Virus record (IMG/VR): IMGVR_UViG_3300012983_001310
DNA: 5,853 bases
Strand: one strand, 5' to 3'
Source of the DNA: a virus
Taxonomy: Duplodnaviria; Heunggongvirae; Uroviricota; Caudoviricetes
Positions 2,794-5,727 of this stretch are shown in pieces; within the stretch, counting starts at the first letter, position 1; each line of letters begins with the position of its first letter. The notes under the pieces were generated by a model. It worked only from the letters and a program-made list of their open reading frames with translations, was not told the origin of the DNA and made no database searches. The translations under genes and the position numbers were made by a program.

Positions 2794-3984
2794 TTAATTG
2801 CTGTTAACCGAGGTGACCAGATTTGCCAGGTATTTATCGGTAATACGCTGGCGCAGGGTCAGGTTTTCAAGAGGAGGCACCGGTGTATAGTCGTAGTCGA
2901 TATACAGTTTTCCGGCCTTGAGGGTTTCCGCATCGTTGGATTCTTCGCTGAACCAGCAGGTCGCATCCACGATATAGCCGTTTGTTTTCAGCTCACGGAA
3001 TTTGGCATTGATGCCGTCAACGATGTCGCGAATCAGCGTTGCGGTGATGGGCTTGTCCACCGCCCACATGTGCGCCTCAGCCATCGTGTCGGCCATCACC
3101 TGCGCGGTGCGGGTGTAGTTTTCAAAGAGGAACAGCGGGTCATCAGAGCAGGTACGGTTACCCCAGAATCGGAAACCGTCGCGGCGAATCAGCGTAGTGA
3201 CGCCTGACTTGTTAAGCAGGTCAGCATCGGTGCCGGACTCCTGCAAATCCCAGAATACAGATGCGCTGATGCCGGTAACACCGTTTACCCCGACGTTGGA
3301 CAGCGTTTTATGCCAGCCCTGCTCCTGGTCGATTTTAGCGCGCAGACCCAGCGCACGGGCGGTGGCATACGCGGTGGCGGTGGTGCTGCTGACCGTATCC
3401 CATGCGAGGAAATCCGGCCAGATGACCATCAGCTCACGCTGGCTGAAATTCTGACGGTAGGCTTTCACCTCGGAAATGGTTTTACAGCCCCATGCGCTGA
3501 TATACCCGAAAGCGCGCAGCTTCTGACAGACTGATGCCAGTGCAACAGCCACCTCTTTGGTGTCCAGTCCCGGCACGCCGAGAATACGCGGTTTAACACC
3601 GGTTACCGACTCCGCCGCCAGCAGGGCTTTCAGTCCGGTGTACTGACCGTTTTCGTCGGTGGTGCCGATGATATTGGAAACGGTCTGCGCGAGTTTCGTT
3701 TCCTCGTCGTCGCCGGTGCCGTCTTCCACACGCACGACAACGGTGACCGGTTTTGACTGGTCGGCGATAGCCTGCAACGATGCCGCCAGCGTGCCTTTTT
3801 TACCGGCCTTTGCAATTGCGCTCTGCACATTGGTAATCAGCACAGGTTTATTGAGGGGGAAGGTTTCCGCATCCGCATCGCTGGCCGTGCAGACCATGCC
3901 GACAATGGCAGTGGATACGGTGGAAATGACGCGGGTGCCGTCGTTAATCTCCAGCACCTGCACGCCGTGATGATAGTCACTCAT
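2794..3984 (-). CDS. FI: Contractile tail sheath protein gpFI (396 aa)
   Basis: 396-aa ORF (MSDYHHGVQVLEINDGTRVISTVSTAIVGMVCTASDADAETFPLNKPVLITNVQ...) recognised as P2 gpFI; the length matches. ATG at 3984 is preceded by GGAG (minus strand CCACGGAGTTAAACGG-ATG). GC-rich coding sequence. Confidence 0.95.
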   Translation of the reverse strand: MSDYHHGVQVLEINDGTRVISTVSTAIVGMVCTASDADAETFPLNKPVLITNVQSAIAKAGKKGTLAASLQAIADQSKPVTVVVRVEDGTGDDEETKLAQTVSNIIGTTDENGQYTGLKALLAAESVTGVKPRILGVPGLDTKEVAVALASVCQKLRAFGYISAWGCKTISEVKAYRQNFSQRELMVIWPDFLAWDTVSSTTATAYATARALGLRAKIDQEQGWHKTLSNVGVNGVTGISASVFWDLQESGTDADLLNKSGVTTLIRRDGFRFWGNRTCSDDPLFLFENYTRTAQVMADTMAEAHMWAVDKPITATLIRDIVDGINAKFRELKTNGYIVDATCWFSEESNDAETLKAGKLYIDYDYTPVPPLENLTLRQRITDKYLANLVTSVNSN

Positions 3985-4078: not shown

Positions 4079-4107
4079 ATAAAGAAAAGGCGGGCAATTC
4101 GCCCGCC
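4079..4107 (-). terminator. Rho-independent terminator downstream of the cargo ORF, oriented for minus-strand transcripts
   Basis: Minus strand reads GGCGGGC-GAATT-GCCCGCC (perfect 7-bp GC stem, 5-nt loop) followed directly by TTTTCTTTAT. On the plus strand the same hairpin is followed by a poor T-tract, so it is mainly unidirectional. It lies ~175 nt past the cargo stop and ~95 nt before the FI start. Confidence 0.6.
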
Positions 4108-4282
4108 TGTCCTGATTTGTACTCACTCATTTTCCAACTGACTATTTACATAGTCCAAACGCTATCAAATCTGACTGTCTGCTTTGAGCGAGGTGCTGAC
4201 ATCCGCATGAATGTATGGAGCTGCCGCACACTCTAAAAATGATAGAACGTCTATATATTAATTATCCCTAAGTCCAGTTTCA

Positions 4283-4810
4283 TTAATCAATTTTATTACT
4301 TTTACCTGCAACCTTTTTATTATAGTGATAATAAGAAATAGCACTAGCAAAATAGGATTTTGTCATCGATACGAAAAAACCCAACAAATCTGCCATGTTA
4401 TCAATATCAATATTTGGTTTGGTTTTACTGGCTTTAGTAATCTTCATGTAGAAGTCCACAAACTTACTTTTTTCTTTATCCGTAATCTGATAATTCAATT
4501 GATGACTGATTTTATTTCTTATGCTGTTAAAGTCTTTTATTCTTAAATATATTTCATCATAAGGGGGTTTTGCAGGCTCATGTTGTATTAAAGCTATTTT
4601 TTGTGAAAATGTGAGTTTTGCATCACCCCAAGCTAACGAAGGATATCTTAATCCAAGATAATCAGTAATATACTTTTCAAGGCTCAAGTGCGCAGTAAGA
4701 AAGGCACCTATGAAGGCAACGTCAACCCCATCAACACGTTCCCATATGCTTTCATTTTCATCAGTCATACCTGTATACACAGCAGTTGATGCAAGATCTT
4801 TCCAGTCCAT
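4283..4810 (-). CDS. Hypothetical 175-aa cargo protein in an AT-rich island; candidate lysogenic-conversion or anti-phage defence gene; HEPN-like R-x4-H motif is speculative
   Basis: 528-nt ORF in DNA of roughly 25-28% G+C (my hand counts on 60-nt samples), where stop codons are frequent and long ORFs are unlikely by chance. ATG at 4810 is the first possible start (in-frame TAA two codons upstream) and is preceded by AAGGA with a 6-nt spacer. Same strand as the tail genes, flanked by its own terminator. Predicted product is largely helical by eye; R98-N-K-I-S-H103 is encoded at 4502..4519. Confidence 0.8.
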   Translation of the reverse strand: MDWKDLASTAVYTGMTDENESIWERVDGVDVAFIGAFLTAHLSLEKYITDYLGLRYPSLAWGDAKLTFSQKIALIQHEPAKPPYDEIYLRIKDFNSIRNKISHQLNYQITDKEKSKFVDFYMKITKASKTKPNIDIDNMADLLGFFVSMTKSYFASAISYYHYNKKVAGKSNKID

Positions 4811-4845
4811 GCTTTATCCTTTTAAAGGTGAATTTAACGAGTTTA

Positions 4846-4874
4846 ACTTTATCTCAACTCAATACTTATCTCAA
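4846..4874 (-). promoter_or_regulatory. Candidate sigma70 promoter for the cargo ORF: -35 TTGAGA (4874..4869), 17-nt spacer, -10 TAAAGT (4851..4846)
   Basis: Read on the minus strand: TTGAGA is a 5/6 match to TTGACA and TAAAGT a 4/6 match to TATAAT, with 17-nt spacing. Predicted start near 4839 gives a ~30-nt leader to the ATG at 4810. Two copies of TTGAGATAA overlap the -35 and the -10. AT-rich DNA gives many chance matches, so confidence is low. Confidence 0.3.
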
Positions 4875-5199
4875 AATTTATGAGTAGAAATAACATCCAC
4901 AAAAAACTATTAAAGCCCTTTTACCTCTTATTATTGATGAAAATGTACATTTTTATAATGAATGTCGAAGAACCTCCTCAGTGGAACTATCAACTACACA
5001 TTGCAAGACTAGAGTATGTGCAAACCTTTTGACAAGGTTCTGAAATATTCATGGTGGCCTTATTATATCAATTTATCTTCACTTTATACATTAACATAGC
5101 ATGATGTTGATAATGTCCGCTCCTAGCACAGAGCGGACTGTCAGATTAGGCCTTACTCTGTACTATAGCTATGTTAACTAACACAAGAGATCATATCAC

Positions 5200-5727
5200 T
5201 TATTGCGGCATTTCCGGCCATTCAGGATTTGCAGGATCCACACGGCTGACCAGAACACAGTAGCGTTCCCATGCTTCCAGTCGGCTACGCTCCTCATCTG
5301 TTGCCATGTTCAGTCTGACAGCGCGCTCCAGTGGCTGAATAACGCTTTCCGCTTCGGAAAGTAACGCGGCCTTTTGTGATTCTGCCTGTTGTTGCTGTTC
5401 GTCTGCCGTATAAATCCGCTTAATCACGGCACCATCCTTAAACATCCATTTACCTGAGTCATCAGCACGTCGGTTGGCGGTAATATCAGGAACCTCGACA
5501 ACGTTAAAACCTTCAGGGTTAAGCGTTGAAGCATCCCTGGTGATGCCGACAATTATATTATTCTCATCGTAAACAATCTTTATCGTGTCCTCCTGAAAAT
5601 TACTTACTTCCTCATACCAGTTTTTTCCCTCTTCGGACCATAACCAGATAACATCAAAATTTTTTGTCAGTTGATATTGGGCAACAGTTTTTGGATTACC
5701 CGCAGTAATATTTTTTAAATGCTGCAT
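5200..5727 (-). CDS. G: Tail fibre assembly protein gpG (175 aa)
   Basis: From ATG 5727 the product is [40 protein letters not shown]...[30 protein letters not shown], recognised as P2 gpG / Mu U family with the characteristic C-terminal W-x-RY-x-V-L-x-RVD...EWP motif; 175 aa matches P2 gpG. The ORF-track start at 5814 is a TTG with no Shine-Dalgarno. The frame is open upstream to the window edge, so the true start is not fully certain. Confidence 0.85.

Follow-up and report, generated by a model that had tools for sequence, protein, structure and literature searches.

Z/fun is one of the two variable loci of P2-like phages that have been described with anti-phage genes (PMC9122126). The cassettes reported at this locus by Nilsson et al. 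(2004) in P2-like coliphages (AJ512676 and AJ512679) lie between genes G and FI, are low in GC, are flanked by inverted repeats and hold a single gene. For these cargos the depositors annotated -35 and -10 signals, and a cargo gene with a promoter of its own is thus a known arrangement at the Z/fun site. How hotspot cassettes move has been called unexplained (PMC13586616). In P2 and W-phi, the operators of the C repressors consist of two identical, non-palindromic direct repeats that overlap the promoter and flank its -10, with half-sites spaced 22 nt apart in P2 and 34 nt apart in W-phi, centre to centre (PMC1904263), and the Cox site of P2 comprises 4-6 boxes of the form TTAAA(G/C)NC(A/C) placed 10-11 nt apart (PMC3936717). 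Clusters of overlapping promoters bound by H-NS, as in the promoter islands of Panyukov and Ozoline (2013), are typical of acquired genes (PMC3661553). The closest characterised relative of the cargo gene studied here is HepS, an abortive-infection nuclease of prophage Gifsy-1 (PDB 9oij and 9oik). HepS is a solo HEPN anticodon nuclease that is constitutively produced and kept as an inactive tetramer, which is activated by a tail-tip protein of the phage, its control being allosteric and not transcriptional (PMC13043305).

The stretch of viral DNA analysed here (hereafter the window; 5,853 nucleotides, IMG/VR record IMGVR_UViG_3300012983_001310) carries all of its genes on the minus strand, in the order tail-fibre assembly protein G (5814-5200, Caudo_TAP), a 175-aa open reading frame, sheath protein FI (3984-2794), tube protein FII, E and the tape-measure protein, a layout matched by that of Peduovirus vB_EcoM-569R9 (ON470601). 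The window belongs to a P2-like prophage, of which it represents the accessory-gene hotspot between G and FI (Z/fun). Between G and FI, a cassette of deviating base composition (30-36% GC versus 50-59% in the flanks) is bounded on the left and on the right by the arms of a 35-nt imperfect inverted repeat, each arm containing a hairpin [Table 1]. The Z-region cargos of Nilsson et al. were compared with it by way of their GenBank annotations. The present cassette resembles those of AJ512676 and AJ512679 in its G-FI location, flanking inverted repeats, low GC and single gene with predicted -35 and -10 elements. It differs from them in its cargo protein, to which theirs are unrelated, and in a duplicated TTGAGATAA that is peculiar to it and absent from both records. 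Similarity between the two records and the window stops exactly at ...GAGCGGAC. Of 5426 complete E. coli genomes, 50 had the cassette, in contrast to 1243 genomes with which the window has just the G-proximal 80-100 nt in common.

Table 1. Features of the cassette and of the region upstream of its gene, in window coordinates.
Feature	Coordinates	Strand	Remarks
Left inverted repeat, hairpin GTCCGCTC-N8-GAGCGGAC	5113..5147	(-)	Cassette boundary on the G side; AJ512676 and AJ512679 label it 'left inverted repeat'
Upstream copy of TTGAGATAA	4866..4874	(-)	Bases 4874-4869 form the -35 of candidate promoter P1, which has the best PWM score in the intergenic region
Downstream copy of TTGAGATAA	4849..4857	(-)	Supplies the -35-like TTGAGA of candidate promoter P2 (4857-4852) and, at 4851-4849, the TAA with which the P1 -10 starts
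P1 -10 hexamer, TAAAGT	4846..4851	(-)	TAAAAT in some E. coli copies (SNP 4847 G>A)
P2 -10-like hexamer, TAAATT	4831..4836	(-)	15 nt past the downstream TTGAGA; TGn-YAATWT (extended -10) in most relatives
Shine-Dalgarno sequence, AAGGA	4817..4821	(-)	6 nt ahead of the ATG at 4810; AAAGGAT kept in nearly all homologues
Cargo gene, 175-aa solo HEPN protein, HepS-like	4283..4810	(-)	Invariant R98-x4-H103
Right inverted repeat, hairpin with CTCGCTCA-type loop	4168..4202	(-)	Cassette boundary on the FI side
Intrinsic-terminator-like hairpin and T tract	4088..4108	(-)	Conserved backbone between hotspot and FI; common to other Peduovirus genomes

The cargo protein matched no Pfam, NCBIfam or PADLOC family and fell in PHROG 5483, to which no function is assigned; no literature was found on its accessions. 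Twenty homologues sharing 59-89% identity with it were identified in Superficieibacter, Citrobacter, Pectobacterium, Yersinia, Serratia, Enterobacter and Ewingella, across which the start codon and the motif IRNKxSH were invariant. A search of the PDB with the family profile yielded HepS as its sole match (E = 0.015), spanning the active-site stretch N-IRNK-x2-H-x3-Y-x2-TD-x-D, where the cargo itself reads IRNKISH...Y..TD. The cargo combines the all-helical HEPN fold with the Rx4-6H motif of that superfamily, and its homologues have as neighbours other small RNxxxH proteins, SIR2, DUF4145 and DUF2971 proteins, beside P4-type integrases. An earlier reading of the window from its sequence alone (the sequence-only reading) had remarked that control by an operator or by overlapping promoters is common for toxic defence genes. 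That the cargo is such a gene is plausible in view of the HEPN fold and the invariant Rx4H motif; the HepS-like active-site match and the defence-like neighbours in relatives lend plausibility to a role in defence as well. It makes the cargo a candidate RNase of abortive infection, placed in the tail-gene hotspot of P2.

The same reading had drawn attention to a 9-bp direct repeat upstream of this gene, the sequence, coordinates and 17-nt start-to-start spacing of which proved exact when both strands were read again: TTATCTCAA occurs twice on the plus strand and TTGAGATAA twice on the minus strand, within ...AAATTTTGAGATAAGTATTGAGTTGAGATAAAGTTAAACTCG.... Identity between the two copies ends at 9 nt on either side. 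An origin by 17-nt tandem duplication was not supported, given that the two 17-nt periods share 11 of their 17 positions and that an indel seen at this place in two homologous loci (L002 and L015) measures 11 nt, not 17 nt. As had been proposed, the repeat sits on the candidate cargo promoter, at the best-scoring promoter-like site upstream of the hotspot cargo gene. The upstream copy provides the -35 of this site (P1), and the downstream copy overlaps its -10, to which it contributes the first 3 nt.

P1 consists of TTGAGA (5/6) and TAAAGT (4/6) separated by 17 nt, within the 16-18 nt range, and thus matches the sigma-70 consensus at 9 of 12 positions. With a position weight matrix (PWM) built from approximate consensus frequencies, of which the relative scores and rankings alone are meaningful, P1 obtained the top score of the intergenic region (10.9-11.6 bits), and the second candidate, P2, whose -35-like box is the TTGAGA of the downstream copy, scored 7.2-7.8. 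When the intergenic region (33% GC) was shuffled, the best site equalled the score of P1 10% of the time, and scores at the level of P2 arose in ~70% of shuffles. The start predicted from the sequence for P1 lies at ~4838-4840 and would leave a leader of ~28-30 nt. In E. coli, the 15-nt spacer of P2 is suboptimal and the TG ahead of its -10 has become CG; the start predicted for P2, at ~4823-4826, would leave a leader of only ~13 nt. The single-nucleotide polymorphism (SNP) in the -10 of P1, carried by E. coli copies L007 and L040-L042, brings this hexamer nearer to consensus.

Upstream DNA was compared among 30 loci encoding cargo homologues. Irrespective of context, homology to the window covered the stretch between the ATG and about -120, indicating that the cargo gene moves together with its 5' region. 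Where the window has the downstream copy, TTGAGAAAA was found in L027 and L029 (8/9), TTGATAAAA in L026 (7/9) and TTAAGAAAA in L001 (7/9), and a -35-like box reading TTGAGA, TTGATA or TTAAGA was present at -47 in most lineages. Fifteen nucleotides past this box, most relatives displayed TGn followed by CAATAT, TAATTT or CAATGT, which resembles an extended -10; the TG occurred at -29/-28 in seven of the 11 lineages outside E. coli and was one base off in another two, and YAATWT occurred at -26 to -21. P2 is conserved among the homologues as a -35-like box and an (extended) -10 whose distance to the start codon is constant. The upstream copy was recognisable just in L001 and L024 (TTGAGATGA, 8/9) and faintly in L027 (6/9). 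L002 and L015 are devoid of it through the 11-nt indel, and Serratia loci L029 and L030, in which the ATG follows the boundary hairpin after only 70 nt, harbor the downstream copy alone. The best PWM site mapped to the P1 position in relatives with both copies (L001, L024, L010 and L017), and to the P2 position in L027 and L029. The copies were 9/9 identical to each other in the E. coli clade only (at least 98% identical overall) and matched at 1-6 of 9 positions elsewhere. Each copy position resembled its orthologue and not its paralogue, the opposite of what is expected for two half-sites of one protein.

The sequence-only reading had offered two overlapping promoters as the second of its options, and it is this one that fits the comparative data, the downstream TTGAGA being conserved in the family and the upstream one being a lineage-specific second -35. 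We consider it probable, if well short of certain, that two staggered sigma-70 promoters, both with a TTGAGA -35, precede the HepS-like HEPN gene. The low-GC, single-gene 'moron' cassette would carry its HepS-like cargo together with a sigma-70 promoter region of its own, in which the two copies of TTGAGATAA would represent two -35-type TTGAGA hexamers 17 nt apart, with a TAA after each. The downstream copy would be the older of the two, the family-wide -35-like box of a P2 that reads TTGAGA-15-TAAATT in E. coli and TTGAGA-15-TGn-CAATAT in relatives. P2 would be ancestral and now weakened in E. coli by the change of TG to CG and the 15-nt spacer. The upstream copy would be a newer, lineage-specific -35 which, with a canonical 17-nt spacer and TAAAGT, may give rise to the stronger P1. 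The identity of the two copies over TAA, beyond their -35 boxes, is taken to be chance in AT-rich DNA. RNA polymerase could occupy either P1 or P2, and a dedicated DNA-binding regulator would be unnecessary. Sequence, promoter matches, conservation pattern, context and fold are observed; which promoter fires is inferred, and so is expression in the lysogen, which is probably constitutive and perhaps damped by H-NS on the AT-rich DNA. Control of toxicity would probably act on the protein itself, as it does for HepS.

Alternatively, the gene might be driven by P1 alone, by a promoter elsewhere or by read-through of the late H-G operon, and the second 9-mer might be functionless, a pure coincidence, which we regard as unlikely but worth weighing. 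The 9-bp repeat is real, yet ordinary, and is not beyond chance in such AT-rich DNA. An exact, non-simple 9-mer with a second copy 9-30 nt away arose at least once in 740 of 2000 dinucleotide-preserving shuffles of the whole window (37%), in 306 of 2000 of the AT-rich stretch 4110-5200 (15%) and in 88 of 2000 of the intergenic region 4811-5199 (389 nt; 4.4%). The window itself contains a second such repeat, TTTCCGGCC at 1230/1245, inside the tape-measure gene. Given these frequencies and this second instance, the repeat alone is without statistical weight. Coincidence is also consistent with a consensus scan that returned five promoter-like sites versus 4.9 expected from shuffles, and with the presence of other promoter-like sites further upstream, such as the extended -10 TGATATAAT at 5070-5062. 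The hairpin after G, moreover, has no T tract, which makes read-through from the G side conceivable. Against coincidence stands the downstream TTGAGA. Several genera conserve its 9-mer at 7-8 of 9 positions and have, 15 nt further on, a TG-extended, -10-like box as well, which argues that the downstream TTGAGA is functional and not noise.

Two more degenerate copies of the motif, TGAAGATAA (7/9) and TTGATATAA (8/9), were noted 10 nt apart at 5062-5081 on the minus strand. The TTGATATAA copy forms the perfect extended -10 mentioned above, which is directed at the cargo and has downstream of it a 20-codon, Cys-rich open reading frame (MNISEPCQKVCTYSSLAMCS; 4990-5052, minus strand). Only in its E. 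coli version does the cassette have the segment (4935-5112, ~180 nt) that holds these features.

Xenogeneic silencing by H-NS, in which the AT-rich promoter region would act as a nucleation zone and the repeat would merely be part of coated, promoter-dense DNA, appears improbable as an account of the repeat. The low GC of the cassette is in its favor, as is TCGTTAAATT at 4840-4831 (minus strand), between the P1 -10 and the ribosome-binding site, which matches the published high-affinity H-NS template tCG(t/a)TA(a/t)ATt at 10 of 10 positions and is the sole match in the window; 11 of 200 shuffles contained one. This motif was, however, chosen post hoc after several motifs had been looked at, is not conserved in the homologues and is not the repeat itself. 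Like promoter islands, the region has several promoter-like sites that overlap one another ahead of an AT-rich, acquired gene, as well as a match to the H-NS motif, but its few predicted sites over ~60 nt are far under the density that defines such islands (PMC3661553). Silencing by H-NS is besides compatible with two promoters, upon which it may be superimposed, and does not constitute an alternative to them.

The other option of the sequence-only reading, an operator, is unsupported. The two 9-mers would here be direct-repeat half-sites for a phage or host repressor or activator, occluding or recruiting RNA polymerase, a scenario that we hold to be very unlikely. It draws on the 9/9 identity of two copies that overlap both promoter hexamers, and on the likeness of this arrangement, in a P2-like phage, to the C-repressor operators of P2 and W-phi. 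The half-sites are nevertheless GTTTAGAT in P2 (PMC1904263) and of the CCTATATAGG type in the resident phage, and the present repeat has neither conservation nor a cognate gene. No co-variation of its two copies is seen among homologues, and one of them is dispensable, the upstream copy being absent from L002, L015 and L029. Its 17-nt spacing equals 1.6 helical turns, which is not an integral number, and compares with 22 or 34 nt in P2 and W-phi. The 9-mer corresponds neither to the operator of the resident repressor nor to any linked regulator: the C-cox spacer of the matching phage ON470601 contains CCTATATAGG, unrelated in sequence, twice and TTGAGATAA not at all, and the cassette encodes a single protein and no regulator gene. 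A phage-wide regulon was likewise rejected, TTGAGATAA with up to one mismatch occurring six times in ON470601 versus 6.1 expected. Among 2.9 million viral contigs of IMG/VR, TTGAGATAA-N8-TTGAGATAA was present in six contigs only, all with this cargo, and a 70-nt probe matched solely the 50 E. coli genomes with this cargo; the repeat, sought in other occupants of the hotspot, was thus found neither in IMG/VR contigs with other cassettes nor in the two records of Nilsson et al. The cassette, finally, resides in prophages of differing backgrounds and in non-phage islands. The SNPs of the E. coli copies, at 4908, 4889, 4886, 4858, 4847 and 4812, all fall outside both 9-mers, as an operator might lead one to expect, but the copies sampled are nearly clonal and this outcome is expected ~38% of the time with ~6 variable sites, so that it is uninformative on purifying selection.

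Other binding sites were sought in the region. No convincing match to a Fur box, a DnaA box, an IHF or CRP site or the direct repeats of response regulators (10-11 nt periods) was apparent by eye. A Cox-box array was dismissed, with only two 8/9 boxes, TTAAACTCG at 4846-4838 and TTAAATTCA at 4837-4829, found 9 nt apart and downstream of the repeat. Immediately past the P1 -10, at 4830-4847 on the minus strand, lies a second tandem 9-nt repeat, GTTAAACTC GTTAAATTC (8/9), each unit of which contains an 8/9 match to the Cox box; these boxes are too few and their spacing is too short for a Cox site.

That the TTGAGATAA boxes are half-sites for a DNA-binding protein of host or phage that switches the HEPN toxin gene between two overlapping promoters, derepressed for instance on superinfection, and that the E. 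coli lineage added this control to an ancestral constitutive promoter, is a speculation to which we attach hardly any probability. A role at the RNA level is unsupported, as the region has no Rfam match and the leader no structure beyond that of shuffles (z = +0.9); type III antitoxin repeats and an AbiF-type non-coding RNA were in particular rejected on account of the two copies repeating 9 of 17 nt, the absence of an Rfam match, the unstructured leader and the mere 70 nt of upstream DNA kept by the Serratia homologue.

The repeat matters little in itself. It marks what is plausibly the native promoter of a prophage gene that is an uncharacterised candidate for defence. Constructs meant to carry the HepS-like gene under this promoter should span 4811-4880 at the minimum and would preferably extend to the left hairpin at 5113. 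The comparison also sketches, on a small scale, the likely drift of a moron promoter between hosts, with an ancestral extended -10 promoter and a newer, canonical one 17 nt upstream. Of greater use are two observations made around the repeat, namely the HepS-like cargo and the boundary hairpins common to phage and non-phage contexts.

The boundaries of the cassette are inverted copies of a 24-nt hairpin, of type B (GTCCGCTCyGTGCCAGrAGCGGAC) upstream of the gene and of type A (GTCCGCTTCTCGCTCAnAGCGGAC) ~100 nt past its stop codon. The boundary hairpin is already known, since its P2 copies bear the annotation 'left inverted repeat' in the 2004 records. Hairpins of types A and B also flank cargo homologues outside P2-like phages, in islands with P4-type integrases and in the Serratia chromosome, where A-B pairs 42 nt apart occur three times in 6.5 kb. 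They map to 1222-1287, 2865-2930, 3612-3635 and 5686-5751 in L029 and to 1118-1181 in L018, and a hairpin is found at ~+611 from the gene start in L002, L010, L024 and L026. Such hairpins, shared around the same cargo in unrelated contexts, bear on how hotspot cassettes move.

The small RNxxxH proteins encoded next to the homologues display KKRNWLAH and KMRNKFAH motifs and match DUF4145 or HEPN_Cthe2314 weakly, and a SIR2_2 protein is present as well; the neighbouring genes lie at 2181-2693 in L024, 2284-2784 in L026, and 3-1304 and 2240-3016 in L027. They form arrays of small defence-like cassettes with hairpins between them. Further upstream in L001, L024, L002 and L027, at ~-140 to -100 from the ATG, we observed a degenerate second promoter-plus-start segment (...TATTGATTT...TTATGGATTGGAAGAT, the real start reading ATGGATTGGAAAGAT), the sequence of which suggests an old partial tandem duplication of the 5' end of the cassette.
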